A stretch of 63,747 nt of DNA, the filler included, from Folioceros fuciformis (Eukaryota), in NCBI GenBank assembly GCA_049999805.1. It is 6 parts of 6 records of this genome, joined end to end, with 100 filler letters (N's around TTAATTAATTAA, not from the genome) between each part and the next. Parts side by side here need not be neighbours in the genome. Positions count along the whole stretch, not along the records: positions 21,655 to 48,796 come from JBNGIO010005794.1; 5 more parts are not named here. One strand, given 5' to 3'. Position 1 is the stretch's first letter; the number at the start of each line of letters is the position of its first letter. The notes beneath the pieces were generated by a model. The model had not been told where the DNA came from. It searched no databases and saw nothing but the letters and a program-made list of their open reading frames with translations. Positions 12,829 to 53,395 of this stretch are shown piece after piece. The translations under genes and the position numbers were made by a program.

Positions 12829-12840
12829 TGGTATCAGAGC
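12829..12840 (+). other. Primer-binding site (tRNA-iMet)
   Basis: TGGTATCAGAGC directly after LTR CA. Confidence 0.92.
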
Positions 12841-16266: not shown

Positions 16267-16366
16267 NNNNNNNNNNNNNNNNNNNNNNNNNNNNNNNNNN
16301 NNNNNNNNNNTTAATTAATTAANNNNNNNNNNNNNNNNNNNNNNNNNNNNNNNNNNNNNNNNNNNN
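16267..16366. other. Artificial contig spacer (N44-TTAATTAATTAA-N44)
   Basis: Six-frame stop linker; identical spacers at 21555, 48797, 58981, 62140. Confidence 0.95.
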
Positions 16367-22270: not shown

Positions 22271-25200
22271 ATGCAGCTCACCATGAGACGTCTTTTGGCG
22301 CCAGACCGACAGCGGGACGTCTACAAGCGAGACGGATGTAACCGCGCACAGCCCGCCTGCGTCGACCTGCTCTACACTCCCCCTACTGCTGGTAGTACCG
22401 CGAAGCAGGTCGTTGATGTGGAGGAGCAATTCGAGACGCAATTACCTCCTCCGTCTAGGTGAGTTGTTTCCACCACTTTGCTTGTACACGTGCTATTGAT
22501 TGATTCATCCGACCGTAAATGCTTAGTGCCGTTCGGCCGCAGTCTTGTTGTCCTGGAAGTCGGATCCAGATCCGTGTGGTGGACTGGTGGTGTAGCCTGT
22601 CCTCCCCTCCGTCGTTTGAGCTGATTGGCTGACTGAGTGTCCGACTGCCCACTCCCCAGTCGTTTGCTGATGCTACGAATGCTGGCCCGCCGCAGCTGCA
22701 GCACTGCAGCTGCTCAATTCTGGTGCAGATCGTGCTCGAGCCGCTTCTAGCTTGCTCTGAGCCTCTTTCGCCTTGCCGTGTGGTCATGACGGTATGTGGC
22801 TGCAGCTCGTCGGTGTCCAAAGTGAAGGAGCCGTGTTTGGAACCCTACTTCAAGCCGGTGGATTACGTGGAAACGCTTGCGAAGATCCACGAGGAGCTGG
22901 AGACCGCGTCGGAGCAGAAGAAGGCGTCGCTGTACCTAGAGCAGTCCTTTGTGTTCAGGGGCTTGGGGGAGACCAAGCTCCTCAGGCGGAGCTTGCGATT
23001 CGCCTGCCAGCATGCAGTTACGGATCACGAGCGGGTCGTCTACGAGGCTTGGCTCAAGTATGAGAAGCGAGGGGAGGAGCTGGACGATGGCAGACCATCG
23101 TCCTGTTGCGGTAGCCCCAATTCCGACTTGGAGAGCCCCGCTCCTTCTCCTTCTCCTTCTCCCGAGGACTCGGAGCCTGACCTCTGGCTTAACGTGTCGT
23201 TTGACTATCTTTCTTTTGAAGATGTAGAGCATGAGCAGGAGGTGGATGTTTGGGATGATGCTTACTGGCCATGCCGGAGCTACTCGGAAGATGAGGGACA
23301 GCACCAGCCGCCTGAAAAGTGCTCCACCTCTTCCCCGTCGAGTTGCTCTGTGGATAACGACCTAGTCTTTTACCTCCATGGGGAACAGGTGGAGTGCAAT
23401 CGCCAAAAGATCGCCTCTCTGTCACTCCCCTTCCATGCCATGCTCAACGGCTGCTTTACCGAAGCGCGGAAGAAAGTCATCGACTTTTCTGACAATGGAA
23501 TCTCGGTAGCAGGGATGGAAGCGGTGGATGAGTTTAGCAAGACCGGCTTATTGCCATGCCTCCCTCCTCCTCTTTTGCTTGAACTGTTGCAGTTTGCCAG
23601 CAGGTTCTGTTGTGAATCACTCAAGGATGCATGCGATGAGAGGATAGCAGTCTTGATCCAAGATGTGTATTATGCTCATATATTTTTTCACTACGGTCTG
23701 GAGGAAGGTGCCCAAGCTTTGGTAGCTGCATGCTTGCAGGTATTCTTGCAGGATCTCCCTGGTTCCTTAGCTGATTCACAGTTTGTCGATCTGCTTGCCA
23801 GCGAGTATGTCAGGAAAAGGTTGACGAATGTGGGACAGTCCTCATTCGCTTTCTATGCACTTCTGAGTCATGCTGCCATAGAAGAGGATTTGGTGTCAGA
23901 TCTATCATTACTTTTTCTGCGGTGCTCGCTGGAATTTGCTGTCACTGAGCGGCAGAAGGCGTTCGCTTTTCACCAGCTTGGGTGTGCCCTGCTCGCTAGG
24001 AAGCAGTATACTGAAGCCGTGCACATGTTCCAAGGAGCAGTCCAGGAAGGACACACATATTCCCAAGCAGGTCTGGCCAGATTGAAGTGCCAATGGGGTC
24101 AGGGAGCTGAGGCTTACAAGGAGATTACGAGTGTCATTTCCACTCACAAGCCAGAGGGCTGGATGTATCAGGAGCGGTCTCTGTATTGTTATGGCAAGGA
24201 AAAGTTGATGGACTTGAAGGAAGCCACAGAGCTTGACCCAACCTTGACATTTCCGTACAGGTATAGAGCTGCTGCTTTCATGGATGAGCAGAACTTGACT
24301 GCTGCTATTGCCGAGGTCAACCAAATCTTGAGTTTTAAGGTCACCCCTGACTGCTTGGAAATGAGGGTATATTGTTGCCTGGCTCTCCAAGATTACCAAG
24401 GAGCGGTTAGGGATGTTCGTGCGTTGCTGACGCTGGACCCATCATACATGATGTATTCCGGGCGAGTGGGTGCCGTCCAATTACTTACCTTGCTGGATCA
24501 ACATGTGGAGAGATGGACCAAAGCTGATTGCTGGTTCCAGCTCTATGACCGATGGTCGTCTGTGGACGACATTGGTTCTCTGGCTGTAGTCCACCAAATG
24601 CTGGAGTCTGATCCGAGGAAGGGTCTTCTTTTCTTTCGCCAGTCCCTGCTTCTCCTCCGGTGAGCGATTCTACAGAACAGATGCGCATGCTGTCAGTTTA
24701 GTGTGTCTGCTGAATCATCTTATGTAGTGTCACTTTTACCTTCTGTGCTCACTTGTGGGAGCCTAAATCACGGTCGAAGTACTGATGCGAGGAGAACGTT
24801 GGCCATTGGGAATTTATATGCTGAGCATCAGATTACTCGTGTGTGTCTGTGCATCTACAGGTTAAACTGTCCGAAAGCAGCGATGCGAAGTCTTCGACTA
24901 GCTCGAGAGTATGCCAGCAGTAAGAGTGAAAGGCTTGTCTATGAAGGATGGATCCTTTATGATACTGGTCATCGGGAAGAAGCTCTGAAAAAGGCAGAGG
25001 AGTCTATCTCTATACAGCGGTCTTTTGAGGCCTTCTTTCTAAAGGCGTATGCACTAGCAGATACCAGCCTCGACCCCGAGTCGTCTGCAAAAGTAGTGGA
25101 GCTCCTAGAGGATGCACTCAAATGTCCCTCTGATGGCTTACGCAAGGGACAGGTACGTTGAGTTGCAATGAGCTTGGATTGGGAGATGGATAGTAGCACT

Positions 25201-25886
25201 TGTCTTATTTTGTCTTTTCCTTGTTGCAGGCACTGAACAACTTGGGCAGTGTATATGTGGATTGCCTGGAATATAGACTGGCAGCCGATTGCTACATGAG
25301 TGCTTTGGAAATTCGCCACACACGTGCTCATCAGGGACTAGCTCGTGTGCATTTCTTGGAAGGCAACAAGGAGTCCGCCCATGAAGAAATGACAAAGCTC
25401 ATCGAGAAGGCACAAAATAATGCATCAGCGTATGAGAAACGATCGGAGTACTGTGATCGGGATATGACCATGGCTGATCTCAAAATTGTGACGGAATTGG
25501 ATCCTTTGCGAACCTATCCTTACAGGTTTCGCGCAGCAGGTTGGTATCAGAACTTGTTTTGTTCAGTCGTTGCTTCTGGCATTTGTTTCTTGTGTGCAAT
25601 TTGTGAACTCTGTTATTTGCAGATCCAGGAACCTGTTCTTATGGGTTTGCTTTTCTTGATTGCAGTTTTGATGGATGGCCAGAGGGAAAAGGATGCCATC
25701 GCAGAGCTATCCAGGGCCATCGCTTTCAAAGCCGACTTGCAACTACTTCATCTTCGAGCTGCCTTTCATGAGTGCATCGGTGACATCAAAGGTGCAATAC
25801 GAGATTGTCGAGCAGCACTGTCGGTTGATCCAAATCATTTTGATACGCTGCAGCTGCATAGCCGAGTGCATAGCCGGGAGCCATAG
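22271..25886 (+). CDS. EOL1: ETHYLENE-OVERPRODUCER1-like BTB/TPR protein; exons ~22271-22458, 22806-24659, 24861-25152, 25230-25539, 25666-25886
   Basis: EPYFKPVDYVETLAKIHEELE, BTB region (LSLPFHAMLNGCFTE), LYDRWSSVDDIGSLAVVHQML, LNCPKAAMRSLRLAR, GLRKGQALNNLG; GT-AG introns join in frame; exon 1 is least certain. Confidence 0.92.
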
Positions 25887-27397: not shown

Positions 27398-30189
27398 TCA
27401 TGCGGCCTGACTTTGGACACATGTGGTCAATCTTAGCTGCATGGTCACAGCCGAAAGGCCTTGGATACTTTGCAACAAAGCCTGTTGAGCATCATGCGCA
27501 TACGCCATAGCCTCCCTGAGTCAGGCAACATCAAGACAACGGATGAACAACAGCGTATGTACATTTTGACAAACACACAGCCGAAAAACTCCAAAAACCA
27601 GGATTACTTTATGCACAGTTGTGGGTCCATTGAGAGATCCACTTCGATGACCACCCGGCCCAGCAGAAAGTGGCACCTCACGTGCTCCACTCTGAAGGTC
27701 TGCTTGTCACAGACAACGCGTTGTTGTGAATTTTGATCTCATAATCCAAGCCCAATGTGACTGAAAAGAAAAACGTCCTCAAAATTGAAACAGGCACCCC
27801 CAGAAAAAAATCCACCTCTTGAAATCTCGCACCAAGAACATCCCGGACATTCTTCTCCACTTCTGGCTGCCGCTGCACATTGTTATCATCGGTGCATGAA
27901 ACTTGCGCAAGGTCAGCGCACTTGTTTGTGATTGGACCTGTCCCGCCGTCGCCCAGTGCCCAATGATTGGTCTTGTCACCGTGCAGACCCAACTTGCCCG
28001 CAGCAGCTGCCATTGCCATTGGAGCAGGTTCTGCAAGCGAAAAAGGGATTTCCATGATTTCAAGATCATGTCTCTAACTAAAACGGTGTGGCAGAAAGCA
28101 CAAAGGCAAGGTCTCACCTATGTGAATGTAACATTCTGCTATATTATGGACTGTTGTTTGAAGCTGACGACGGACTGCTTCCCCAATGCCATGCGCCGCA
28201 CTTACACTGAGCCAGGGGTTGACCTGTCACGACGCAAGTCTGAGGCATGTTCCATAACGAAAATTCTGACATGGAGACTGGCTCTAAATGTCGAGGTATC
28301 ATAGACATACCTCAATATGGACATCCAGATGCAGCGAAGATCCCATTCTTCGACCTCTTAGGTCATGGCAACCCTGCCAGAACAGGCACTTTGTTAATCG
28401 TCTTGCCACATAGTTTCACCTACTACAGCTGAAAATAATCGCTGACAACTGGCCAACTGCAAACAGATACAAGTGTCCTGGACAGCTAGCAGTTTGAGGG
28501 AAGAAAAATTCGTCACACCGTACATATCAAAGCCAGTGTCTTTACTATGGGCTATTGTCAAGAAAATAGCTACCATGACACCCTCAACGCTGAGTACAAT
28601 ATCTCGAATGGGAGCGAGAACACTTTCGGGCACCCCCTTGTCCACCAACTCCTGCAAACTACAAGGACAAGGGCAGACAAGGCATGTCAAGGCTCTGGAG
28701 AAAGAACAAATTAGTTCGATTTAGAACGTCAAGGAAGTAGGCCACAATCAAAAGCAGGAGTGAGTGAGCTGTAGAGTGTAACCAGGCCTGTTAACTGCAG
28801 CCGATTCACTACTACAGATCAAGTTAGCACGAACCTTTGGTAGCCGCACTGAAGACCAGCCTTGACAATCATTCCTGAGACAAGAAGGCCAGCGAGAGGA
28901 TCCAGAAACGGCACCCCAAGAATTGAGCCGCCTGAAGCAATCAGCAGAATCAACCGATATTCATGCCAACCAAGACCATCACCAAGCGCGAAGGAAGTTA
29001 AAAAGAAGCGGCGCTCACCAACACCCACAAGCGCAACCAGCGAGGAAACTGCATCGCTGCGATGATGCCACGCATTTGCCTTCAACAGTTGACTTCCAGT
29101 TTTCTCACCAGCATTTTTCGTGAGCCAATATAATCTGCATTGGGCCAGAAAATGCAACCCACCGAAAACTTGATAAGCCTCGCGTGATGAAAACCCCATC
29201 CCCATTCGGCACTGGGGAAAACCAAATGTCGCCCAACATACGAACCCTTCTTTGACACCGATGGAAACGATTGCAGCACTGAGCGCTACAGCTTGATGCT
29301 CCATGTCCACACCATGATGATGTCCTCCATGAAGATGGTGCAAGTGCTGGGTCGCTGCCTCCAACACAGCATTCGGCTCCAGGGAATCCACGGATGGTAA
29401 CAAGACCTGTGCAGAGACACCTGAGCCCAACCAAGCATGCAACGCGGGACCACTAAGCAAGCACCAGAAAGCAGAGCCTTACGTTCTAACTCCCAGTCTG
29501 CTTTCCAGCTGATTCTGCTAACAAACTTGGGCAAGGGCAACAGGGCTCCAGCGAAAGGGAGACGGCAGGTCACTTGCCTGCAACACCTCAAGAGCATGCC
29601 ACGCGATTCCCCCACCAGTAACCAACAGCATTCCGGAGATGCCCAGGGCTCCAATGGTCTCAAACTTCCCGTGCCCTGCAAGCAATCCATCATTCAGATA
29701 GGCTGCACATTCCTCACAGGCAAGCTCAATGCGCAACGCAGGTGTCACCCGCCATATGGATGCTCAGGATCTTTTGGTGCTCTTGCTGCCTTGAGAGACC
29801 ACAGCGCAATACCGCTCAGCACCTGCACGAGCAGAAGCCGCCAATCACGTCTCTGGACACTTTCACGATTGTAAGAATCCTCTTTCCAATTGCGTACTCA
29901 CCACATCAGACAAGGAGTGAGCAGCATCGGCAAGAATAGCAGTGCTCCCGGAGATAGCACCAGCTCCGCCCTTGCCAATTGTGAGCGCGATGTCGGACCA
30001 GAGACCCCAGCGCGTCACACGATCGGCAGCGGCGGAAGAGGAAGAGTCTGCGGAGCCTGGCTCGTGGTGATCCGCATGGGAGTGGCCCATGTGAGTGCGC
30101 ACCGAGATCAATCCAGGTCCGGAGCCGAAGGCGAACGGAATCCGAAACCGCCGCAGCTCCCGAGGCCGCAGCCGCAACCAGGCGGCCAT
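27398..30189 (-). CDS. MTP6: Metal tolerance protein, cation diffusion facilitator of MTP6/MTPc1 type (probably mitochondrial), ~12 exons
   Basis: Arg-rich transit-like N-terminus; ADAAHSLSD, HPYGHGKFE, His-rich loop, ANAWHHRSDAVSS, LDPLAGLLVS, LRGRRMGS, SVSAAHGIGE; last exon EAMAYAHDAQQALLQ...QAA* with TGA at 27398-27400. Confidence 0.9.
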
Positions 30190-30380
30190 GATCTCAGAGC
30201 AACCATGAAAGAGGGGCCCCTACTCCTAGCTCTGGTTATCCGAGGCTTCCCGATTCCCAGCAATTACTGTGCATTTCTCAGCTAGAATGCACATCCCGCT
30301 CTGCCGACTATCGCAGGGAAGAAAATCAGGTCCGGGTCCACCAACTCTCAACCTTCGGTGTTCGCTCGAGGCAACATCCG

Positions 30381-32687
30381 CTAGAGGCAAGAGTCTCGAG
30401 CAAACACCAGCACGTAGGCCTGCAGCTCTCTATCGACAGGAACGTGCGAGTGGAACAGTTTCTGAACCTGCTTGTAGCAATACTTCTCCAGAAAGGTCGT
30501 CACTCGCGGAAGCAATGGATCAAACATCACCACATGACTTGGCAGGAGGGACAGAGGCTTCTCGTCTCCCTCGAACTGGGCTGACAGGAAGGCCAACGGT
30601 TCAGACATGAACCGATCTACCTCGTCTACATATCCAGCCACATCGCTGCAAACCAAAGCAGGCAAGGACGTCAGAAGCCGCGACGGGACCCATGACGGGG
30701 CCATATGCACCGGGTTAAATAAGTGCACTTGCCTGGGAGAGCAATCCAAAAATCGCATGGGAACGTTCTTGTGCAAGGAAGAATAGAAGGGTGTCGAGTG
30801 GCAGGGCATCAGAAAGAGGATGCTGTCGACATTAGGGTTTCTTCCAGCTTCCTGTGCGAGGTACTCCATGACAGCCTCGGAACCTCTCTGCATCCACCAC
30901 AGGTTTGTTACACGGCCCAGTGCATACGGCAGAAGCTCGTATCGGACAACATGTGCCCAGATGCTCACCTGATGGACCAGAGACGTATACAGGGCAACCG
31001 GGACATTCGTCAGCAATAAGCCCAAGGCAATCCATCTAGCTGGAGACCAATGCAGGATCTTGGAATGACTCTTGTCTGGGGCATTCTCCACTGGATGATT
31101 GGCAGATCTGCCAAATGGTTCCAGCACAGAGAGACCATAGCCAGCAAACAGCATGGCTAAGGGCAGTACGGGCAAAACAAACCTGAAACGGAATGGAATG
31201 GATGATGAAACTTGTCAAAACGACCTGATGTGTACAAACTTGTAGCCCTACACTGCCTATGCCTGCAGAATCACGAGACAGAAGGAAAGCGTGTGTCAAA
31301 AGCATCGCACCTGAACTCCTTGTGCCCAAGAATGCTGTAGAGGCAGAGTGTCCATGCTATGAGGCCGGACAACACCCATTCTCTTGACCACCAAATTCCT
31401 GCTACAGATACTGGTAGGAAGGAGAACGCCATAGCGGGAAAGCCTTGAGAGAAGTACCAATGCCAGGGATGTGTTCCATAAAAGTCTCCACCAGATGACA
31501 AAATATTGAACTTGAGGAAGTTCCATGGCACGAAGGTCAGCCTCCCATACATCCAGCTGTCTAGCCCACTTGTTACTCCAAGAGCGAGCAGCCTGCGAAT
31601 TGTGGTGAAGACGCTGAGAAGGTAGACACTGATAGGACAAGTGTAGCGGCCGCATCATGCTTGACCTGTACATACCCTGTCGGCAGCACCTCCAGCAAGA
31701 GGAAATGTAGCTTGTCTTGAGTTTCGACGAGATGAATGGCACCCAAGTAGAGCCAGATGATAGCACTTGTCGGGCGGATGACACAGGCCACAGCTGCTAC
31801 TGCTAATGCCAGCCGACGATGCACGGACGACATCCTGGCACCAGACCCCACATAGGGCTCACAGCATGGAAGAGGCCAATAGTACAGAGCCACAACAGTA
31901 ATCACAGTCTCCAGACTGTTGACGAGGGTCCGAACCATGCAGAAAAAGGTGAACCAATTTGTCAATTGGCAGAAAAGCTGTATCAAGTCAAGGATTCCAC
32001 AAGTCTAGAGCACGCATCCAAAGCTGAAAGGCCAAGCTGATCCAGGATACTGCCCACTGGGCTGCACGCTCGTTGAAGATGCGGCACCCTAGCTTAAACA
32101 CATACAAATCCCCAAACGCAGCTGCCACAGCCTGAAGCAGACGAGGGCCCTTCGTCTGCAGCACACGCAACCAGCTGCCCCTGATCATTGCTCCAACAGT
32201 GCAGCTGGAAAGCAGTACTTGACAAGCTCCATCCTTCCCTCCCACCCTCACGGAATGAAGAAGAAGTACCATAACCCAGACGCTATCCAGCTTCGCTATC
32301 TGCAACAACTTGTACAATGCTGCAAAGAGCAGTGGATGAAGATAGGAGCGTAGCCCTTGGTTCCACTCCCACGTCAGATGCCCATACCTTAAACCCAAGT
32401 ACGATGGAGCATGTAAGCATGGGCAAATGGTGGTGAGGCACGACAGGGGAGTGACTACCCAGGTGAGAGTTTCACCCAAACACGATCCGATGTGCCACCT
32501 CCAGGGCCTGCCACTGCTCGTCCGGATTGAAGTAAGTCCGCACCAGCAGTGCGTTCATCAGGCGCAAAGCCAAACATCCCAGCCATACAGTCTTGCTGTT
32601 CCACCCTCTTCGTCCCTGTACCTCATACCGTTCCTTTGGCTGCCAGTCTGCATCCAGTGTTGGAGCATCACTCCGTCTCCGCCGCAT
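30381..32687 (-). CDS. PIGB: GPI mannosyltransferase III (PIG-B/GPI10, APTG1-like), ~9 exons
   Basis: RTYFNPDEQWQALEVAH, GHLTWEW, LRSYLHP, RTLVNSLET, FYGTHPWHWYFSQG, GHKEFRF, LMPCHSTPFYS; introns join in frame. Confidence 0.92.
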
Positions 32688-33144
32688 GGTCGACACACTC
32701 TCCTCGCCTCTTCAAAGCCTTTGCCTGACACTTGTGCCAAGTGCAAGGAACAAGCTCATTTCAGAGGTGCTAGGCTGGGTATCGAAGATCCCGGGAACCA
32801 ACAGCAACATCACGTATTAAGAAGAAGAGAAGATTAACAAAAATAAGGAACGTGCGAGTTAAATCCTGAGACCTGGGTCTCACAACAGTTCACGGATCCA
32901 GAGATTATGGATGGACTTCTTGGAAGCAGCAGCACCCCGTCAACGGAGGTCGAGGATGAGAGGGACAAATTCCATCTCTGCTCGCAAAAAAGCCCAGCCG
33001 TTGGTCAAGGAAATGTGAATGTGGATTGTTACAATGGAAGAGACCTCAAACGGTCACAGCACTCGCTGGGTGAAGGAACTAACTAACTGTGAAGCTACCA
33101 AGCTAGGTAGGTAGCTACAGGATCCTAACTGGGGGATCATCTCG

Positions 33145-34320
33145 CTAGCCATGCCAAGCATGTTTCCAGCCAGGCATTTCCTCTCTTGTTATGACGTTTT
33201 GTGCTGAATAGAGGCCTTGAATCTTCTGGATGCTGTTGCTCTGCTCCACCAACTCAGCCCATGCCATGAAGAATGACCACCGAGGCTCTGCCACAAGTCT
33301 GCTTATGTCTGGCAGCACAGCACATTCCCCTACGGCAATCAGCTTCTTTCCTGCAAAGGCCGTCATGTTATCGTATTTCCATGTTGCGTATCCTTCGTAG
33401 ACGTCCAACGCCGCAATATCGTAGTACTTGCTCCCAGGATCGTACTTGATTAGATCTGTGGGCAGAGTCCCGAAATCCTGGATATCCCATATCCAGACCA
33501 GGTTGGTGAGCCTCTTGACGTGGGTCATGTAGTCATGGGTGATTTGGTAGAGTTTCTTAGAGCCATGAGCTCCTGGTCGACCAGCCCACCAGAACAGCCC
33601 CTGATTTTGTTCGTGGAGCGGTCGAAACAGGACCTCCACTCCTCCATCTTTCAACTGTGACAGATACTGTGCCACATCGTCCAGCATGGACTTCCACCTC
33701 AGGTTTAACTCAGCGCCATCGGTTGTCAGCTGAGCCCACTGCTCGTCCGTCAGGGTGGTGAGCACACCTCCTTCCCACTCACAGGGTGGACCATTGACGG
33801 GATTGCAGGCATGCCACATGATGTGCACCAGACTTCCTGCTTCCCATTGCTTCTGTGCCTCTTGGACCATGGTTGGGCGGGCAGCTATGTCAGATGCTTC
33901 AAATAACATGTCTCCACTCCATAACCCAGGATACTTGCCTGTGGTATCCTTGATCCATTGTGTCCACTTGTCAGGCTCGGAGTTTGGTTCTCTGTTATGT
34001 TGCCCGGAAACTGTTTGCTTCCCCCCAATGCTGTAGAGGTAATCCAGGGTCTTGAAGGAGTCACTCCCACCCACCATCAGGCTCTGTATGCAGCAGAGAC
34101 ATCAGATTGCACACCTCACGAAATCACTTCCACACACCTAGTCTGGGCAGAGATTCTGAACCGCATCCATTCAGTAAGGTTCGATTGCAGGAACGGATAG
34201 GATCAATACATGATTGTGTAGACTTACAAGTAAGGTACAACATAACAACATCCTGTGCCATGCCACTGACTTCCACGAGCCGCTCGCAGTTCCAACGGAG
34301 GATCCCACGTGTACAGTCAT
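33145..34320 (-). CDS. Secreted glycoside hydrolase family 26 (beta-1,4-mannanase-like); exon 1 34320-34228, exon 2 34083-33145
   Basis: Open 310-aa frame with SGQHN, TGKYPGLWSGD, MWHACNP, LFRPLHE (acid/base Glu 33610-33612), FWW, LTNLVWIW, DIAALDVY, AVGEC (nucleophile Glu 33325-33327), FMAW; phase-0 GTAAGT...CATACAG intron adds hydrophobic leader. Confidence 0.9.
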
Positions 34321-35193
34321 GCAGAGCAGTGGTAAGTGATCCACGTTCCCTGGACGAGTCCACAACCGTCCAGTGGAAGATGAGTGTTTGTGTGCCCAGC
34401 TCTCACTTTCACACACACACACTTGTGGGGAGAAACGTTTGAATAGGCCATCTGAACATATCATTCCGTTCTCACTCTGCTCCTTCCTAGAGCTTCGATT
34501 CTGACTTCTGGTCAAAAAGGAGAGAATAATAAAAGATCCAATAGTGGGTTCTTCACGTGTGCTGTCCGAAAGGCGGGTGGGCTACAGTAGAATACCTAGT
34601 TCCAACCAGTGGATCTGTTGTCGGTGGGAATTCACACTATCGGATGCTAGAGAGGGACGAGGCACATGGAGGATCTCGGTATCCCATTTAGACTGAAGAG
34701 TACTCTGGAGAGAAGCTCAACATTTGTCATGAAGAACCTGCCCGCTCTCGTGCTCCCACGATTGAGATATCGCGCATAGAAGCCCGCAGATTTGTGTAAC
34801 AAGGCTGGGAAACCGTTCGTGCAACATCTTCTGGAAGTACCACAAGCTGGCTGGGTGCCCAAAATGGCGAGCACATGGTAAGATGGTTCCTGCAATTGTG
34901 GTCTAGGAAGGTCAAGAGAAAGTCGTCCTTGCTGTGGTTTAACATTGCAGCACTGATGCTTGCGTGCATGTCTTGGTTTGGATTGGGGTCCAGATCAGAG
35001 ACTGAGTCTGGAGAATCAATTATGGTTGTGGTCTGGGGCTTAGGATGTGGCATTGACCATTGCTGGGTGTTGGTTGTCCTGGCAGTGAAAAATTGTCAGT
35101 GGATAAGACAGAGCTGACAGATGGCCCCCCATGTGGTGTGTTTGCAGGGACACAGGTGATCCATCCAGATGGGTCCGTGGATGGATGCCCAAA

Positions 35194-35250
35194 TCCTGAC
35201 AAGTCCACAAAGTCCTGACAAGTCCACAAAGTCCTGACAAGTCCACAAAG
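35194..35250. repeat. 19-bp tandem repeat TCCTGACAAGTCCACAAAG x3
   Basis: Three consecutive copies. Confidence 0.9.
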
Positions 35251-35615
35251 TTGTGTTTTGTGGGTGGTTGGCAGCTTTGAAATGGATAACCGTCAGTTTT
35301 GAAATTGTAGGTACTTAAAATTCAAGTTCTGGGAACCATGGACAATTTTGATATAGGCTAGGTACAGTGTGAGCTTGGTGCTCTTTGTTAGGTCGATGTC
35401 GTCTGGTTTGGTTTGAGGGTCACATAAAAAAATGTAATTAAAAAATCCTCCTTATAACTTTGTGGGTGGCAAGAAAAAAACATACTTTACAATAAGTTTC
35501 ACTTAGAGCTAATCTAGAGGGGGAATAGGTTTTTGTTGTTGCTCATCTTTTTGTCACAAGTGGCAACAAGTTTGTGATATTGATGTGATTGTCATGAATT
35601 CCACTTGGGATTCAA

Positions 35616-36212: not shown

Positions 36213-38256
36213 TTATTTTCTCTATAATACCTAGTTAATTATAAAAAAATCTCCCTCCTGATCGAAGCATTAACAAATGTGCTGCCTTGCTTGTCCTGGC
36301 CCCGAGCAATGGTGATAGTGGAGGGAATATTTGAGGTGCAAATGGTGGAATGTGTGCAAGTTTCTTTTATGGTTTCTTTCCTAAATAACAGATCACAGAC
36401 AGGACCACGACCAAAGCTCGTCTCCACTTGTCATGCCTTACGCTTCGGCAGCGAGACGAAACAAATTTGCAAGCAAGTTAGTATGATGATTAGTTGGACT
36501 TCACATCTTCCCAGTAGGAGTCACACTCGTCAGGAACTGCATGTTTAGGGATATCGGCATACAATCAGTTCTGAATGTCGGAGGGACGTGATTGGTTGTT
36601 TATCTTGTCAGGCATAAGATTGAACAGGCCATGGCCGTCCAGGACACCGCACAGGTACATTAGTTTTAGCTTGTGTCGCATGAACTGGAACGCACGGTGA
36701 GGGAGAGCGTCTGGTTTTGAGTCGACTCGTCATGCTGACGGGATTAGAGTGGAAGNNNNNNNNNNNNNNNNNNNNNNNNNNNNNNNNNNNNNNNNNNNNN
36801 NNNNNNNNNNNNNNNNNNNNNNNNNNNNNNNNNNNNNNNNNNNNNNNNNNNNNNNGCATGATGCTGGACCGCAGGAGACAAAGAAAACCGAAAGCTGTCG
36901 AAAGGAGTCGACCGTGACCTCGCCTTGCGCCTTCCTCTGTGGTGGTCCTAATACGCAAGAACATTCAGCTCCCCAGGAAGGATCCCTGCAGGAACACGCA
37001 TTCCGAAAAGGGAGAGCTCCAGACCTTTTTGGAGTATAACACCTCACCCGACCTAGTGACGCCACTACCTCTTTTTTAGGACTTTGTTGTCCCCTACCTC
37101 GCCGTCCATCTGTTGTCCTGACTCAGGAGATTATGAGCACTCAGCCACTTTTATCCAGAGACGAGTGGTCATCCCCCAAACTGTGCTACACATCACAGAT
37201 GTGAACAGCGATCCGGGATCAGGAAGCTCCGACTCAGACGTCACAGACGTCAACCGTGATGTGCGACCTGGCTGTCCTGTAGAAGCAGGCCACGCTTGTT
37301 CCCTCCAGTGAGACCGAGACCGTAAAACTGTCTGTTACACATCTCACGCTCACGCACATACAAACGAATGGTGAGCCGGGATCTGGAAGTCCATATTTCT
37401 TACAAATCGCAGATCTGAACTATTGGGATCTGCATCTGCGAGTCCCAATTAGACAAGAAGTGTGATCTGCATCTAGAGGTCGTGTACACACAATTACGAC
37501 ACCCTGGTTTCCTCCAGCGAGACCGAGAGTGCCTGTGCTCGAAACCGTCTGTCAATCATCCATTCCGAAATCGTCAGCAAACACAGACACGGAGCAGCCG
37601 AGCAGGGCCCTTGTGATCCAATAACTCTTCTCAAAGGCCCCGGTTCGTGGGTTTAGGATGTCTGGCCGTACTGAAAGTCCGGCCCGATGCGTCGTGCTTC
37701 CCTTTCCCGAAAGGCTGCCATGGATGAGGCTGCCTTTCGTGTAAGGCTGCCATGGTTTCTGTTCCGGCGTGCCTCCCGCTTTCAGCGAAATTTCATATAG
37801 GGTTTCCGGTGCAGAGCAAACCAGAGCACAGCAGGGCCATGTGAAATTCCTGATGACCTAATTGAAAGAATCAAATCAATCAATCCATCGATTTCCCATG
37901 CCCATATACATATGTATGCCTGTATATATGGATGCATGTTGTCCATGTATGGAGGTGGGTTACAGCATGGTGTGAGCTCCGGAGAAGAGGTCCATGGTGC
38001 GGGTCACCAAACAGGACGCATGAGAAGCACGCTGTTAAGGCTTCTCTTCGGTCGAGGAATCTGCGGGGAAAGGAGACAGTAATCCGGGACAGGCTTGCAT
38101 CGTCCTTCTGGGATTCACTCAACAGCGCGGGAAATGACGTCTCGTGCCACAATAGCATAATCCGCGGGTGGGCTATGGCAGAACTCCCTTTTCCTTTACC
38201 CTTCCCGCTCCCGTGAGCCTCCCTAAGCACACCCGGATCATCAGCTACCTGCAGCC

Positions 38257-41200
38257 ATGGCGGATGACGCCCACAAAATCGTTATCCTCTATGCAACACA
38301 GACCGGAAACGCCCAGGATGTAGCAGAGCGCATAGCTCGTGAAGGAGCCCGGCGTCACTTCCGCCTCTCCGTCGCCTCCGTTGCCAACTGGAATCCGGTA
38401 CCAGGCACCAGCCTTCCTTTGCTGCATCGCGATCTGCTTGGATGGAAGCTGGGCGGATCGGAATTTGATGGGTTGCTTTACAGGCTCAACTGCCGTATGA
38501 AGACACGGTGATTCTGGTCACCTCCACCACAGGGCAAGGAGACGCCCCGGACTCTATGATAGTAAGCTGCGGGCAGCCGTCCTGTCCTGTCCCGTCCCGT
38601 TTCCCCTTTTCTTGTTCACGGGAGAAGCGGAGGTTTGGGTGTCGTGTAGAGAAGGGAGCTGACATGAGGAATTTTTGCTTTGCAGGGGTTTTGGAAGTTT
38701 CTGCTGAGGAAGAGTCTTGGACACCGATGGCTGGAAGGACTTCAGTATGCCGTGTTCGGGCTAGGGGACTCAGGGTATCAGGATTATAACGTGAGCACAG
38801 CGTTTTGTCGCTGCTGTTGTTTTTGAGCAGCAGCAGATGTGGTGCAGATAAGGCAGTCGTCCGCCAGCTGAATTGGGATTGTTTGTTTGCAGGTGACTGC
38901 CAAGAAGCTGGACAAGAGATTGCTTGACCTTGGTGCTAAAGCAATCATCCCGAGAGGGCTTGGGGATGATCAGCATCCTTCGGGGTAATCCTTGGGCCGT
39001 GACCATGCTGACAGACCGTGCCTGCATCGTGGATTTCCTGCTGTTGTATTCAGGGTTCTGGTGCATGTGTTTTAGGTATGAGGCTGCACTCGACCCGTGG
39101 TTGGCTGCTCTGTGGGCAGCGATGAGAGAGCGGTTTCCCCTCCCTCTCGGTTTGACTGACCCAGGGCCAGAAGATGTAGGCTCGTTGGACCCTCCAAAGT
39201 TTTCCGTGAAGTATCATAAAGCACGAGCTGGCTCTCAACTGCCTGATATGCCTGCAGATACTAATGCAGGTAGCATGGAGCCAGTCTGGTTGGTTGCAGA
39301 GTCTGTACATGCTTCCTTGAGAAGAGCACAGCAGACTTGCTTGAAGTTGAGTTGATTTGTTAGGTTGAATATGCATGCGTTAAGTCCCTGACACTTGCCT
39401 CAACAGGCATACTTGACAGGTGGACAGAATACGAGAAAGCGTGTAAAATGATGTGCTATGCTGGTGGAGGTGCGCCTGTGGGGGAGCATACAGCCACTCA
39501 GCCTGTCTTTGCAGAATTGGTGAGTCCCTCAGAGGTTGTGTTATTGCTGTTCATGGGAGATGAGAAGAGAAGGGCCCGTAGAGTGAAGTAACTCATGAGC
39601 ATGACGAGCAGGCCAGTCTGTGGATTTGTAGTGGTTGTGACAGGCTGTTGAATGTTGCCCCCTCCACTCTTCCCAGGTTGTGAACAAGCGCCTGACGGCA
39701 GAAGACCACTTCCAAGATGTTCGACACTTAGAGTTTGACCTTGGAGACACTGTAAGACTGCCTTCTTGACTTACCGGAAACTGTCTCAATGATTGGCTGA
39801 TGAGTGCCTGCGAGCTGAACTCGGCTTCATGGATATCCAGGGCCTTCAGTATGAACCTGGCGACATTTTGAACGTCGTCCCCAGTCAAGATGGAAAAGCA
39901 ATTGATGCTTTCCTGAGGCGTTGCAACCTACAGGGGGACGCTCTCATTTCTGTGAGTCAAGTTGCTCTTTGGGGTGGAGGGTGACTGCTTGTAGGTGTGG
40001 TGGTGTGCAAGCGCCATACGGACGGGAATATGATATTAATCGGACGATCTTTCTTCTTTGAATGTGGAAAAATGTCAGGTTGAGGCAGCAGATGGGGAGA
40101 ACGATCTTCACAGTGGGTCTGACAGACTCACACCCAAGAAAGGTGCAGTGGTCAGGTTACGGTCTCTGGTTGAGGCGGTCATGGATGTTTCTTCAGCATC
40201 ACCACGCCGCTACACTTTTGAGGTGGGGCATTGGGCTGGGAGGACTCCCTCTTCAGCCCCTGACACACTACACTGCACTACACTCCACACGGTGGAGCCA
40301 AAACTGGTGGTAACCAGAAAGTTTCTTGTTCCTACAGGTTATGAGCCACTTTGCAACAGCCGAGCATGAGAAGGAAAGGCTGAAGTATTTCGCTACCGCT
40401 GAAGGACGTGACGATCTTTATCAGTACAACCAAAGGGAGCGTCGAAGCTTCCTTGAGGTACCTTGTTTGTCTCCTGGAGCAGCGCCTGCTGCTGCTGGAA
40501 TGTAGCGCAGGATTCGAATGTGTGAAATGTGGGGTTGTAAATGTTGTGGCAGGTGCTGGAGGACTTCCCTTCTGTACAACTCCCACTCGAGTGGTTGCTA
40601 CAACTGGTCCCTCACCTGAAGTCGAGGGCGTTCTCCATTTCTTCCTCCCTGCGACTCCATCCCAACCGTGTTCACCTAACGGTTGCTGTGGTGGAGTGGG
40701 TGACCCCTTTCAAGCGAAGACGACATGGGCTGTGCTCCAAGTGGCTGTCGCAGCTGGATCCTACCAAGGGTGAGAGTCCCACGTCCCGCCATCTCTCTCC
40801 CTTGGGTCCCCACCTCTTTTACTGTGCTCTAACCTGTGAGCCATTTGCCGATTACCAGGCACAGTATTCGTCCCGTGCTGGATCTCCCGAGGCGCTCTGA
40901 AGCTGCCCCCGCCATCCGTGCCTCTAATACTGGTAGGCCCAGGCACCGGGTGCGCACCGTTCAAAGCGTTCGTGGAAGACAGATGTGCGTTGGCGGCGTC
41001 GTCCCAGCCGGTTGCCCCAATCCTCCTGTTCTTCGGCTGTCGCAACCACGACAAGGACTTCCTGTACCGACATGTGTGGCAGTCGTGCAGCAAGGCGGGT
41101 GGTGTTCTGTCGAAGGAAAGCGGCGGTGGGCTGGCTGTGGCCTTTTCCCGAGACCAGGAAAGGAAGGTGTACGTGCAGGACAAGATCGAGGAGCTGGGCA

Positions 41201-41691: not shown

Positions 41692-42818
41692 TTGGGTCCA
41701 TGCGTCACGCAGACAACAGCATGGCTGGCACAAGGATGCCATGGGCGGCCCAGATGGCATGGCCATGCGTCCTGCCTGGGCTCCTTCCTCCGTATCTGTC
41801 ATCGTCCCTCCTCGTGATGTGTGGCATGCGATATGTAAGAAACACATGGGGACACATGTGTGGAGAGCCGGGATAACGGCAGGCTTAGCGGGTGCTCGAG
41901 AAAGCCCGATTCGGGCGGTGGAAATAAGCGAGTTCGGATAAGTGTGGCGCCCGGTTGGGTGGGTGTAAGCGCGCGGCACAGATCACGGGCAGGCCGACCC
42001 GGCCTCAGTCCTAGCCTGCTTGGGCCGGCTTTGCCCAGCCCGGCGTGGCCTGGCCTGGCCCAGCCCTGCCCGACCCGCTCTTTTCCATTCCCCTCGATCT
42101 CTGTTATGTCGGCGCCGCTCCACGTCCTGCTGCGTTGGAGCCTTTCTCTCATGGCCGCGGTAGAGAACTTACGACTGCAGCTGCCGCTGCCGCCCGCTTT
42201 GGCCTCCTCTCGCGTCTCCTGACCCCACGCTGGCCTCCGCATTTGCTGCAGCTTGCCTCGCCACTTCTCCTTCCGGCCGTGTAGGGCTTGCCTTTCTTCA
42301 ACAAGTACATTTCATACATACGTGCCTCGTCCTTCTTCCTCCCCCTCCTCCTCCTCGCGCTCCCGCACGGTGTGCCTTGGTTGTCCTGCCTCCTCCATGC
42401 TATGCTGGGCTGGCTTGGCCACTGTGCCCCTCACCAGCAGCAGCAGCAGAGGCAGGAGCACCAGCAGCAGCTTCCTGCCTGGAACCTTCGTCCGCTTTTT
42501 CTCCTCCCTCTTCCTCTTCCTCTTCCTGTTGTTCATCTTACCCTAGCTCCACCTCGCAGCTCCGGCAATCGGTGGAGGAGGCACCAACGGCGGCACCGTA
42601 ATCGGACAACAGCAACATCGGGGGCAGGCAGTGGCAACGCGAGCGCAAGCAGTGGCCGCCGCAGGACGAGCCTGGCATGGAGGAAGGTAGGGGGATGAGG
42701 GCCACACGTGCGGGGACAGGTGAGTAAGCAGTGTGCAAGCGGCGCGCGTGGCGGAGGGAGGCGGCCCCCAGCGCATTCATTGTTGGAAGCTCCTGGGGGA
42801 AAGGAGCAGGGAGCGAAG

Positions 42819-45800
42819 ATGATGTCCACCACGAAGGTGACGTACTCGTCGGCCAGCTCGGCCAAGAGTAAGCACAGTGTGCGGGTGGCGCAGACGACGG
42901 CGGACGCCAGGCTGCATGCGGTTTTTGAGGAATCCGGGGAGTCGCGGGACTCGTTCGACTACTCCAAGTCCATCGACGCCAGCAAGAGCACAGGGGACAG
43001 CGTGCCCGCGCAGGCGGTGACGGCGTACCTGCAGCGCATGCAGCGCGGGGGGCTCACGCAGTCCTTCGGATGCATGATTGCCGTCGAGGAGGGCAGCTTC
43101 AAGGTGATAGCGTTCAGCGAGAACGCGCCGGAGATGCTGGACCTGATGCCGCAGGCGGTGCCCAGCGTGGGCCAGCAGGCGGTGCTCGGGATCGGGACGG
43201 ATGCTCGGTCTCTCTTCACGCCGGCCAGTGGGACGGCCCTGGAGAAGGCGGCGGGCGCCATGGATGTATCCTTGCTCAACCCCATCTCCGTGCACTGCAA
43301 GAGTTCCGGGAAGCCCTTCTACGCAGTGGTGCACCGGATCGACGTGGGCCTTGTGCTGGACTTCGAGCCGGTACGGCCCACGGACCTGTCTGTTTCTGCT
43401 GCCGGGGCTCTCCAGTCGCACAAGCTGGCGGCCAAGGCCATCTCCCGCCTCCAGTCCTTGCCCGGTGGAGATATCGGGCTGCTGTGCGACACAGTGGTGG
43501 AGGAGGTACGGGAGCTCACTGGATACGACAGGGTTATGGCTTATAGATTCCACGAAGACGAGCATGGAGAGGTGGTGGCGGAGATCCGGCGCTCAGACCT
43601 GGAGCCGTATCTCGGGTTGCACTACCCGGCCACCGACATCCCGCAGGCTTCTCGCTTCCTCTTCATGAAGAACAGGGTGCGCATGATCTGCGATTGCTTC
43701 TCCCCGCCGGTGCGGGTGGTGCAGAGCAAGCAGCTGCCGCAGCCGCTGAGCCTGGCCGGCTCCACCCTCAGGGCGCCCCATGGCTGCCATGCCCAGTATA
43801 TGGGCAACATGAGCTCCATTGCATCTTTGGTCATGGCTGTCATCATCAATGACAACGATGAGGACTTCAACGGCAGGGGGTACCAGCAGAAAGGTAGGAA
43901 GTTGTGGGGTCTGGTAGTGTGTCACCACACAACGCCCCGCTCAGTCCCTTTCCCCCTTCGCTCGGCCTGTGAGTTTCTGATGCAAGTCTTCGGTCTGCAG
44001 CTTAACATGGAAGTTGAGCTGGCTGCACAGCTGAGGGAAAAGCACATTCTCCGCACCCAGACCTTGCTCTGTGACATGCTCCTCCGAGATGCCCCCATTG
44101 GGATTGTGTCCCAGTCCCCCAACATTATGGACCTTGTCAAGTGTGATGGAGCTGCACTCTATTATGGCAAGCGATTCTGGCTGCTGGGCACCACTCCCAC
44201 CGAGGCACAGATCAAGGATATTGCCGACTGGCTGCTGGAGCACCACAAGGATTCTACGGGGCTCTCCACCGACAGTCTAGCCGACGCCGGCTATCCTGCA
44301 GCCGCCGCTCTCGGCGACTCCGTCTGCGGCATGGCTGCCGCCAAGATCACCCCCAAGGACTTTCTCTTCTGGTTCAGGTCCCACACCGCCAAGGAGGTGA
44401 AGTGGGGCGGGGCCAAGCACGATCCGGATGACAAGGACGATGGCAGGCGGATGCACCCCCGCTCCTCGTTCAAGGCCTTCCTGGAGGTGGTGAAGCGCAG
44501 GAGCTTGCCTTGGGAGGATGTGGAGATGGATGCCATCCATTCGCTACAGCTCATTTTGCGGGGCTCCTTTCAGGATATTGATGACAGCGACACCAAGACC
44601 ATGATTCATGCACGTCTGAATGACCTTAAGCTGCAGGGCATGGATGAGCTCAGCACTGTGGCCAACGAGATGGTTAGGCTCATCGAGACTGCCACTGCCC
44701 CGATTTTGGCTGTGGACGCCAGCGGTTACATCAACGGCTGGAATGCGAAGGTGGCTGAGCTTACGGGACTCCCCGTCGCAGATGCAATGGGCAGGTCTCT
44801 GGTTAAGGATTTAGTGCTGGACGAATCTGTGGAGACCGTGGAGCGCCTCCTATATTTGGCTTTGCAAGGTAGTAATGCACACGACTCTTCCCGTGCCTGC
44901 TGCTCGCAATGCATTTCCTTTTTGAGGTGTGAACGTACCTTCTTGCAACACGAAAAGAGTAACCGGACGTCTATGCAGGGGACGAGGAGCAGAACGTGGA
45001 GATAAAGCTGAAGACTTATGGCGTGCAGAAGGACAAGGGTGCTGTTATTCTTATCGTCAATGCATGCTCTAGCAGGGATGTGACGGAGTGCGTTGTCGGG
45101 GTGTGTTTTGTGGGCCAAGACGTGACAGGGCAGAAGGTTGTCATGGATAAGTTCACGCGCATACAGGGGGACTACAAGGCTATCGTTCAGAATCCCAACC
45201 CGCTGATTCCGCCCATTTTCGGCTCCGACGAGTTTGGTTATTGCTCCGAGTGGAATCCAGCCATGGAGAAGCTCTCGGGCTGGCGAAGGGATGAGGTTAT
45301 GGGAAAAATGCTCGTGGGGGAAATCTTCGGCACGCAGATGATGTGTTGCAGGCTCAAGGGTCAGGATGCCATGACTAAATTTATGATAGTGCTGAATGGG
45401 GCAATGGATGGTCAGGACGCAGAGAAATTTCCCTTTGCCTTCTTCGACCGGCTGGGGAAGTATGTAGAGGCGTTGCTCACTGCCAGCAAAAGGACGGATG
45501 CGGAGGGAGCTATCACAGGTGTCTTTTGCTTCCTCCATACGGCCAGCGTGGAGCTGCAACAGGCTCTGACTGTTCAGAAAGCCACTGAGAAGGTTGCATT
45601 CGCCAAGTTGAAGGAGCTGGCGTATATCCGGCAGGAAATCAAGAACCCTCTGTATGGGATAATGTTCACCCGGAATCTCATGGAGGATACGGATTTGTCA
45701 GAGGATCAGAAGCAGTTTGTGGAGACGAGTGCTGTTTGTGAGAGGCAGCTAAGGAAGATTCTAGATGACATGGACCTCGAGAGTATCGAAGATGGGTAAT

Positions 45801-46631
45801 GCCCTATCTGTTATCGTTGTTGTCCTCTTCGTTGTCCTGATCAGATGAAATAGACGTGCGGCCTTTACACCGGCCAGTGGTGTTTGGCAGCTTGCATTTC
45901 TGACTCACGCGGTTTCTGTGGTCTGAATTCCAGGTATCTCGAACTGGACACGGCAGAGTTTGTGATGGGAACCGTGATGGATGCTGTCATAAGTCAAGGG
46001 ATGATAACAGCTCGGGAGAAGGGCCTGCAGCTGATTCGGGAGACTCCGAGAGAGATCAAGAACATGTGCCTCTTCGGGGATCAAGTCCGATTGCAGCAGG
46101 TGTTGTCAGACTTCCTGTTGAATGCTGTCAGGTTTACCCCATCTTCAGAAGGATGGGTTGGTATTAAGGTGGTGCCCTCACGGAAGCGACTAGGTGGCGG
46201 CGTGCATGTGATGCACCTGGAATTCAGGTAGGAGGGTCCATGTTTTCTTAGATAGACCCTGGAAACCTGGTGCTGCTATCCTTGACGTGAGTTCTCCATT
46301 TGTGGTTGCGCGCGTGGTTACGCGTCCGTTGACATCCGTCTTGTGTGATCCCTTATGCAACACTCTCATACGGCGGAGCTGACGGTGGAGTCGTTTTGGG
46401 TTTTCCAGAGTGACACATCCAGGAGCTGGGCTTCCAGAAGAGCTGGTGCATGAAATGTTTGACAGGGGGCGTGGAATGACCCAAGAAGGCCTGGGCCTTA
46501 GCATGTGTCGAAAACTTGTAAAGCTTATGAACGGAGACGTGCAATACATTCGTGATTCGGGGAAGAGTTATTTTCTGGTTAATGTTGAGCTACCCTTGGC
46601 TCAAAGGGATGATGCTGGCAGTGTGAAATAG
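42819..46631 (+). CDS. PHY: Canonical plant phytochrome; exons 42819-44868, 44979-45795, 45934-46227, 46409-46631
   Basis: [23 protein letters not shown]-terminus of non-seed plant type; [14 protein letters not shown], chromophore site [21 protein letters not shown] repeats, [10 protein letters not shown]; typical 3-intron layout (exon 2 817 nt, exon 3 294 nt). Confidence 0.98.
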
Positions 46632-52100: not shown

Positions 52101-53395
52101 GAGCATGCGACTTCAATAGTCTGCTAAGTGACATCAAATTCTTCGCCATCCCCGGGATGTACAATACCCTGTCAAGGGTAAGCTCTGTGTTGTCCGACAG
52201 GATAAAGGTACACATCCCATGCCCTCTGATCTGCAATCCAGTCTCAGCCCTCTCATCTCCCAACAACACTTTCTCAGATACCCTGAGCAGATGCAGATGT
52301 GAAAACTGGTCCTTGTCCATACAAATATGTGTAGTTGTTCCAGAGTCTAGATACCAACTGGTACTATCCCTCGTGGAGCTAGACTGCCTAGGCAAACAGT
52401 ATAAATCTTCATAGTAGATTTATCATGGTCACCTCCAGACTTGCCTTTCATTGCCATGCTGGAAGTAGGTTTGGGTTGGCGCTGCGGCTCGCCTGCCTTC
52501 TTCTTGCAGCAGTCATGGGCCCAGTGCCCAGCTATCCCACACCAATTACAATTCCCTGTCCTTTTAGTGGAAGAAGATCCAAAGTCGTTATCACGCTGAC
52601 CGGACCCTTGAGTCTTCCCTTTAATTTTGTTCAGCTTGAACTTCACAGCCAAAACCCTTTCACTCTTGTGTTTATGTCCACCTGACATAAGCTGCCAACT
52701 TTGCTCCTCCTGGTACAATGTGCCAATAGCATCCTCCAATGTTCGGGTGTTGGATGTTGTCGCAGCACCAGGTCCTCGCGTAAATGTCTGAACTTGCTTG
52801 TAAAAACTGCAACGTTATCAAACTCCTTCATCTTAAGTGTGAACAGCTCCTGTCTAGCAGCACAAAGGGCCATCTGATTACGCACTCGGTATGTTTTCTC
52901 AAGCTACGCCCAGATCTCATGAGCCTTGAGCAAATATTCTACATTTGGAATTAAAACAACATCCAAACCACTTATGATTAGCGCTACAGCAAGTTCGTTG
53001 GCTGAAGTCCATTCGTATAGGAGGGTTTGTTGAGCAGCTGAAAGTGTAGTTCCTAGGGCTACTGCGGCTGGCTCCTTGCAAGTCCCATTGACCACAGTCC
53101 ACACTTTCCTAGTGACAAGAACAACCCTCATCGGAACACGCCAAATGTGATATTGGTTACCATTAAATCTATCCTTTTCTTTTAATTCAGATATTGAAGA
53201 GGAGGTAGATGAGATAGACATGTTTACGTGAGTGTTGGAATTTGTGCTATGTGATGATGGTTGTGCTTGCTGTTGTGCTTTTCTTTTATTTGTCTTAGGT
53301 GTGCTCATGTGTACTCCCAGAAGAGGATCGTCATCTGACGAGCCTGAATCCTCTTCGTGCTCAAAATCAAAATCCCTACCTCCAAAAAATGACAT
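49182..53395 (-). pseudogene. Degenerate full-length Ty1/copia gag-pol
   Basis: Gag (RFNGNQYHIWR), CNWCGIAGHWAHDC, WYLDSGTTTH, WHARLGH, QNGVVERKN, SCKWVFK, HVDDVI, GFTDADWASD, NVADILTK; many frameshifts and stops. Confidence 0.93.

Follow-up and report, generated by a model that had tools for sequence, protein, structure and literature searches.

A gene encoding a glycoside hydrolase of family 26 (GH26) in the nuclear genome of the hornwort Folioceros fuciformis very probably goes back to a GH26 glycosidase secreted by soil Bacteroidota, the donor being Cytophagales-like. The gene lies on the minus strand of a 63,747-nucleotide stretch of DNA, here called the window, which joins six parts of assembly GCA_049999805.1 with filler between them (GH26 lies in the part from JBNGIO010005794.1, positions 21,655–48,796). 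It has kept the catalytic domain alone, is transcribed and spliced, and its product is predicted to act on β-1,4-mannan-type glycans. The first-pass annotation of this locus had proposed horizontal acquisition rather than contamination, and this is supported by the phylogeny, a spliced transcript, orthologues with the same intron and a host-like GC content at third codon positions (GC3). The transfer itself is already known from Anthoceros angustus (Zhang et al., 2020; PMC7027989). To this the present analysis adds a spliced 5′ exon with its intron, a nearer relative among bacteria, and contigs that point to orthologues in three organisms.

The GH26 domain and its bacterial relatives

By sequence and predicted fold, the open reading frame (ORF) at 33145–34101 on the minus strand (318 codons from stop to stop in the ORF listing of the window) belongs to GH26. 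It matches the Pfam profile Glyco_hydro_26 (PF02156) with an E-value of 2.4e-39 and 136 bits (cut-off 20.2) over positions 11–311 of the 311 in the profile, and no GH5 match was seen in the Pfam scan. The ORF also matches 29 distinct GH26 sequences of the Protein Data Bank (PDB), the best of them 6q75_A (2e-55). When the hornwort protein is aligned with 22 bacterial relatives (23 sequences), it keeps all 83 invariant columns, which include H157/E158 and G252/E253/C254. The putative acid/base glutamate in the RPLHE/HEQN motif (codon 33610–33612, minus strand) is residue E158 of the exon-2 translation and aligns with the HE motif of 6q75, 7eet, 3wdq and 3zm8; the putative nucleophile in the VGEC/GEC motif (codon 33325–33327, minus strand) is residue E253 and aligns with the glutamate of 6q75, 3wdq and 3zm8. 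In GH26 the glutamate after strand 4 acts as the acid/base and that after strand 7 as the nucleophile, roles that E158 and E253 would fill here. An AlphaFold2 model of the domain, made with the 23-sequence alignment as input, has a predicted local distance difference test score (pLDDT) of 90.9 and a predicted template modelling score (pTM) of 0.91; its strands alternate with helices, strand 151–155 preceding E158 and strand 248–252 preceding E253. In a Foldseek search with this model, 6q75 ranks first with a template modelling (TM) score of 0.90. The other places as far as rank 30 are taken by GH26 mannanases, apart from one engineered protein (TM 0.70–0.80), and GH26 lichenases and xylanases stand at ranks 32–41 (TM 0.50–0.59). 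The first-pass annotation was therefore right to describe an intact GH26 domain with both glutamates (RPLHE and AVGEC), each of which is invariant in 23 of 23 sequences.

The relatives of this domain are bacterial. A word-seeded search of a large protein collection returned 808 matches, of which the best 120 are 54–60% identical to the hornwort protein. All 12 organism-named matches among these best 120 come from Bacteroidota: Pedobacter, Hymenobacter, Pontibacter (two), Mucilaginibacter, Spirosoma, Rufibacter, Rubrolithibacter, Ohtaekwangia, a Sphingobacteriaceae metagenome-assembled genome (MAG) and two Bacteroidota MAGs. No plant GH26 occurs among the best 120 of the 808, though the same collection, which evidently holds no hornwort proteomes (the window's own protein was not recovered), returns many plant phytochromes. 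An exhaustive HMMER search of 1.84 billion cluster representatives gave 3477 matches, none above 59% identity, and the cluster members of the 10 best representatives include one named organism (Cohnella, with a 2548-aa multi-domain protein) and no eukaryote. The nearest clusters in the ESM Atlas are all 100% Bacteria GH26, with no plant among them. A scan of prokaryote genomes confirmed 272 loci, and the 80 that were kept comprise 73 from Bacteroidota, 5 from Pseudomonadota, 1 from Chlorobiota and 1 unplaced.

The closest relative is L065, a protein from a Cytophagales MAG (72-kb contig), which is identical to the hornwort protein at 209 of 298 positions (70%) with 0 gaps over query residues 9–306 (BLASTP). 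The homology starts at exon-2 codon 9, where the bacterial mature protein begins. The L065 protein is 695 aa long and carries a signal peptide, the GH26 domain, a family 6 carbohydrate-binding module (CBM6), an F5/8 type C domain and a Por_Secre_tail of the type IX secretion system (T9SS); RND-efflux, HlyD, GH5, SDR and histidine-kinase genes are packed closely around its gene. Judged by this domain architecture and these flanking genes, L065 is plainly bacterial. L065 and the hornwort protein have in common the motif HEQNQ and, ahead of 'ATWKY', a loop shortened by four residues (the 'YEG' loop), and this short loop is absent from most other relatives. In the Cytophagales MAG, a GH5 'Cellulase' family gene with a twin-arginine translocation (TAT) signal (L082 6551–7702, minus strand) adjoins the GH26 gene (L082 8208–10295, minus strand), and no SusC/SusD pair was found within the 19.5 kb examined.

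Phylogenetic analysis places the hornwort protein beside this bacterium. In a FastTree phylogeny of 332 rows, hornwort GH26 is sister to L065 with a local support of 100. In an IQ-TREE phylogeny of 70 rows (model LG+C20+F+G4 with posterior mean site frequencies, PMSF), the pair is recovered with an ultrafast bootstrap (UFBoot) of 100 and an SH-aLRT of 99, and the 63-row ingroup also with 100/99; bootstrap convergence was incomplete (correlation 0.977). For this tree, a clade of 13 rows was combined with P0128, with rows drawn at random from the wider clades and with 8 outgroup rows, these last chosen once 18 long-branch rows had been set aside. Bacteroidota account for 28 of the 31 phylum-labelled rows. 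The Cytophagales protein is thus the nearest relative by BLASTP, and the maximum-likelihood phylogeny nests hornwort GH26 as its sister within a Bacteroidota-dominated clade, in keeping with the microbial type of enzyme that had been proposed.

A side observation concerns the titles of some bacterial rows. The near relatives L001, L016, L042 and L064 are titled as Moraxellaceae, Janthinobacterium, Prosthecochloris and Citrobacter MAGs, and are nested in Bacteroidota clades; the Janthinobacterium row, for instance, stands among Hymenobacter rows in the tree. From these placements, the non-Bacteroidota titles probably reflect mis-binned contigs and not transfers.

Gene structure, splicing and orthologues

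The structure of the gene was examined by comparing contigs of four sequencing runs with positions 32300–35300 of the window. X3 is an RNA-like run from organism A made in a separate study, X5 is an RNA-like run from organism B, X1 is DNA that may come from the very source of the window, and X6 is DNA from organism C. Stretches without contig cover (e.g., 32765–32793, and 34426–34636 in X3) were given no evidential weight. A 1488-nt contig of X3 matches the window with 0 mismatches at 32794–34083 and 34228–34425, skipping the 144 nt between them, whose ends read GT..AG on the minus strand. Altogether X3 skips three introns, one in GH26 (34084–34227), one in the neighboring PIG-B gene (32386–32473) and one on the plus strand (34877–35146), all of which are retained in the DNA contigs of X1. 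Because X3 skips the PIG-B and plus-strand introns besides that of GH26, it is taken to represent spliced RNA. X5 shows the same GH26 joint (34083/34228) at about 91% identity to the window.

The gene (minus strand) thus has two exons. Exon 1 (34425–34228) contains the 5′ untranslated region (UTR) and the first codons. It is separated by a spliceosomal GT..AG intron of 144 nt in phase 0 (34084–34227; GC 0.46; seen in one X3 and one X5 contig) from exon 2 (34083–32794). The coding part of exon 2 (33145–34083) comprises 312 codons plus the stop at 33147–33145 and holds the whole catalytic domain, as delimited by Pfam, BLASTP, AlphaFold2 and Foldseek. The 3′ UTR extends over 32794–33144, contig 7 of X3 reaching 32794, so that 24 nt separate its end from position 32770, where the contig of the PIG-B transcript has its 5′ end (X3 contig 6). 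Two start codons come into question: the first ATG of the transcript at 34320 (343 aa), which is also where the first-pass annotation had placed the upper end of the gene, and a second in-frame ATG at 34251 (320 aa). In the spliced reading, a 14-residue hydrophobic stretch runs across the exon junction (Kyte–Doolittle mean up to 2.6, residues 25–35). The earlier claim of an intronless catalytic domain among intron-rich neighbors holds for the domain; the gene as a whole does contain an intron, and it is removed in a perfectly matching contig from a separate study.

Orthologues of GH26 are present in two further organisms (B and C), with an identical intron site. In X6, the coding exon is about 92.6% identical to the window (62 differences and 0 gaps in 841 nt) and the intron is present, part of it (34110–34175) being classed as 'same length, diverged'. 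X5 differs from the window by 24 substitutions and five listed deletions (7 bases) in 133 nt of the 3′ UTR, as against approximately 73 substitutions in 939 coding nt, an approximate count drawn from 40 of 188 difference rows. This contrast is consistent with purifying selection acting on the coding sequence. The exons of PIG-B have diverged to a similar degree as GH26 (4/86 and 21/214 in X5; 16/131 in X6), and thus GH26 has been inherited together with its neighbors since organisms A, B and C split. The composition of the gene is host-like: its GC3 is 0.60, and that of the PIG-B and ETO1-like exons is 0.56–0.60, whereas that of bacterial L065 is 0.41.

Horizontal transfer, its rivals and the predicted substrate

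On the reading preferred here, the source of the gene was very probably a secreted GH26 enzyme of a Cytophagales-like soil Bacteroidota. The catalytic domain alone has been retained: the plant gene lacks the signal peptide, the CBM6, the F5/8 type C domain and the T9SS tail of the bacterial protein, and has a short 5′ exon and the 144-nt spliceosomal intron instead. Its membership of GH26, its bacterial ancestry, its integration into the genome and its splicing are shown by the data, and what follows on secretion, substrate and biological role is inferred from them. The hydrophobic stretch of the new N-terminus would most likely serve as a signal peptide for the endoplasmic reticulum (ER). The product would then most likely be a secreted retaining β-glycanase, using the HE and GEC glutamates in a double displacement on β-1,4-mannan-type glycans.

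Several points count against this account or parts of it. The RNA nature of X3 and X5 is deduced from the three canonical intron-skipping joints, the tool's own label being only 'RNA?', and the contigs carry no measure of expression level. The 29 nt that link GH26 to PIG-B (32765–32793) are covered by no contig of the four runs, and an X1 contig that ends at 32856 carries 28 extra letters with no match in the window at ≤3 mismatches; a structural variant may account for this loose end, or an artefact at the end of the contig. In the tree, the nodes between the L065 pair and the 63-row ingroup are weak (support 18–87), and because of these weak deeper branches the donor is represented below phylum level by a single MAG only. 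For the signal peptide, the start codon is ambiguous between 34320 and 34251: two bases at 34318 are missing in organisms B and C, so that the first ATG is lost or displaced there, and 34251 is therefore favored as the conserved start. That the hydrophobic stretch acts as an ER signal peptide is the most likely interpretation, predicted from hydropathy alone. For the substrate, the nearest solved relative, GH26A of Muricauda (6q75), is reported to be inactive on commercial mannans and manno-oligosaccharides (PMC9860051), so the label 'endo-β-mannanase' may be wrong in detail for the hornwort enzyme.

The substrate can accordingly be stated with less assurance than the ancestry. We consider it fairly probable that the hornwort enzyme is secreted and active on β-mannan, as most of the characterised structural relatives that Foldseek finds for the model are endo-β-1,4-mannanases. 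It is also possible, at clearly lower probability, that a truly acquired GH26 is not a β-mannanase but an exo-acting enzyme or one of narrow specificity, or that it acts on mixed-linkage glucan, β-1,3-xylan, or microbial or algal glycans and not on the plant's own wall. Muricauda GH26A, the closest solved structure, has a loop over its +2 subsite that blocks it (PMC9860051); the alignment of the hornwort protein to 6q75 is nearly gapless, so that the loops are probably shared, and GH26 does include the lichenases and xylanases that Foldseek lists. However, the TM scores of those enzymes (0.50–0.59) fall below those of the mannanases (0.70–0.90), and Muricauda GH26A removed the LM21 epitope of β-1,4-mannan, although solely from natural algal material (PMC9860051). 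The Cytophagales relative, with its CBM6 and adjoining GH5, also fits plant-glycan degradation, a setting that does not settle the substrate. A more specific scenario, which we put forward tentatively and regard as doubtful, is that the 5′ exon with its phase-0 intron was recruited after transfer to supply a eukaryotic signal peptide, a step that escapes the single-exon model in print, and that the enzyme belongs to a poorly understood GH26A-like subclade and acts on a non-standard β-mannan, for example in hornwort mucilage or the microbes living there, instead of taking part in ordinary wall turnover. Any role in remodelling the wall or mucilage, or toward microbes, is at present speculation.

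Two other explanations dispute the transfer as such. That a Bacteroidota fragment was misjoined to hornwort sequence, through bacterial contamination or a chimeric assembly, might be suspected from a catalytic exon that lacks introns, from best relatives that are all bacterial, and from the uncovered 29 nt and the loose end at 32856. Yet the X3 contig passes through 32856 with 0 mismatches, and two organisms, sequenced in different studies, each have a contig that lacks the GT-AG intron through splicing. The nearest bacterium is just 70% identical, its signal peptide and C-terminal modules are absent from the hornwort gene, and the GC3 of that gene resembles the host and not L065. In addition, the independent assembly of A. 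angustus puts GH26 beside ATR3 and phytochrome. Contamination is thus highly improbable. An old streptophyte or land-plant gene, passed on vertically with widespread loss or transferred from plant to bacterium, is likewise very unlikely, if not quite to the same degree. The searches covered protein collections and prokaryote genomes, and hornwort proteomes are evidently missing from the large protein collection, a gap that leaves some room for such a gene; against it, hornwort GH26 forms just one tip in the trees, enclosed by a bacterial radiation that runs to hundreds of sequences, the ESM Atlas neighborhood is purely bacterial, and the collection that returned plant phytochromes has no plant protein among the best 120 of its 808 matches, so that a vertically inherited clade throughout the streptophytes, which the first-pass annotation had named as the competing outcome, is unsupported. 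Moreover, the supplementary material of PMC7027989 files the gene under 'Hornwort-specific HGTs' (horizontal gene transfers), and gene families also present in P. patens or M. polymorpha were screened separately in that study.

Gene neighborhood and comparison with known systems

Around GH26 the window contains ordinary plant genes. Downstream lies PIG-B, a GT22 mannosyltransferase gene with several exons (30381–32770, minus strand), five ORF pieces of which (30381–32711) match successive parts of PF03901 and whose intron at 32386–32473 is removed in contigs of both X3 and X5. ORF-level Pfam scans also identify Cation_efflux/MTP exons at 28819–30219 (minus strand) and a TPR/ETO1-like gene at 22633–25886 (plus strand). 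Upstream are an ATR3-like diflavin reductase (38227–40900, plus strand; Flavodoxin_1 and FAD_binding_1 exons by Pfam) and a phytochrome (42699–46231, plus strand; Pfam PAS_2/GAF/PHY/PAS/HisKA/HATPase_c). The N-terminal exon of the latter is 98% identical to an Anthoceros phytochrome cluster, 93% identical to Nothoceros and at most 89% identical to other land plants, which places the host in or near Anthoceros. The plant-gene setting that the first-pass annotation had described from PIG-B, MTP and EOL1 is confirmed and can be extended by the ATR3-like and phytochrome genes.

A further transcript was observed on the plus strand, where an X3 contig joins 34637–34876 to 35147–35223 across the GT..AG intron at 34877–35146. 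It stands head-to-head with GH26, about 210 nt from the 5′ end of that gene, and the ORFs under 34637–35223 have no Pfam match. This transcript may be a non-coding RNA, or it may stem from a small gene that has escaped annotation or from the ATR3-like gene, of which it would be a distant 5′ exon. Copia and gypsy retroelements are present at both window ends according to Pfam scans. A gypsy-type RT-RNaseH with an integrase zinc domain lies at 1724–3386 (minus strand), and copia integrase and gag fragments lie at 51088–53410 and 62184–62942 (both minus strand). Copia-type gag/Pol_BBD domains occur twice in tandem within 11645–16322 on the plus strand (11645–12541 and 13380–15707, the second with an integrase core), an arrangement suggesting that two copia copies, one truncated, lie side by side or one within the other.

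The published case in A. angustus is the nearest precedent. In that genome, 19 genes in 14 families were attributed to bacteria or fungi, two of the families to Bacteroidetes, and the main text names 'glycosyl hydrolases (AANG004297)' (Zhang et al., 2020; PMC7027989). Supplementary Table 31 of the same paper gives AANG004297 at scaffold13:171076–172008 as a gene of 933 bp with PF02156, a donor in Bacteria-Bacteroidetes and the entry NO for introns. In the window, the stretch between an internal ATG at 34077 and the stop at 33145 has exactly this length; the two genes are likened here by length, family and gene order and not by sequence. The A. angustus model is thus a single exon from an internal ATG, whereas the spliced contigs give the gene in the window a 5′ exon and a 144-nt intron. 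Gene order in A. angustus runs from phytochrome (AANG004295) and ATR3 (AANG004296) through GH26 (AANG004297), radical-SAM, ankyrin and CWC22 genes to ETO1-like (AANG004301), MTP (AANG004302) and PIG-B (AANG004303) (PMC7027989). The phytochrome-ATR3-GH26 side is collinear in the window. In contrast, the PIG-B/MTP/ETO1 block directly abuts GH26 in the window and has the reversed order. Synteny with PIG-B, which the first-pass annotation had raised, therefore holds in that the same genes lie within six gene numbers of GH26 in A. angustus, and fails for the order and adjacency of the PIG-B block. These differences point to a local rearrangement between the hornwort genomes around GH26. A simple inversion was considered and could not be demonstrated: ORF-level Pfam scans found no CWC22, ankyrin or radical-SAM genes at 16.4–22.6 kb of the window. 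In the full-text literature, no further report of a hornwort GH26 was found beyond PMC7027989; the Anthoceros genomes paper (PMC8075897) contains no occurrence of HGT, mannan or glycosyl-hydrolase terms, and the passages on GH26 in PMC9434271 and PMC11811186 deal with lichen photobionts and green algae, not hornworts.

Transfers of carbohydrate-active enzyme (CAZyme) genes from bacteria to plants are cited as contributors to the adaptation of early land plants. This locus is a well-supported example, with a donor lineage that is 70% identical, an intron gained, modules stripped to the catalytic core and conservation across related hornworts. With the transfer already in print, the value of the present analysis lies in its confirmation and in the corrected gene model, which matters for expression of the protein and for prediction of its localisation. 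Caution is called for by Muricauda GH26A, which, as the closest characterised relative, is reported not to be a standard endo-mannanase.

The hornwort enzyme can be set beside several known systems. It shares with L065 a gapless catalytic domain, the HEQNQ motif and the short 'YEG' loop; the L065 protein, however, is 695 aa long and also carries a signal peptide, a T9SS tail and two carbohydrate-binding modules, and its gene is intronless and of low GC3. The endo-β-mannanases of seed plants belong to GH5_7, which is another CAZy family within that clan and has an evolutionary origin of its own. They resemble hornwort GH26 in its predicted secretion and in a presumed substrate class, the β-1,4-mannan of the wall. 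GH26A of Muricauda sp. MAR_2010_75 is the best solved relative by both sequence and fold and keeps the catalytic residues, but it is only about 33% identical to the hornwort protein in the structural alignment, and is described as a periplasmic enzyme of a marine polysaccharide utilisation locus (PUL) whose substrate is itself unsettled (PMC9860051). Among eukaryotes, Sphaeropleales green algae are reported to have acquired GH26 genes (PMC11811186) and the coffee berry borer the bacterial mannanase HhMAN1 (PMC12448838). As described in these papers, they are likewise microbial glycan-degrading genes in eukaryotes, and represent independent events in other hosts.

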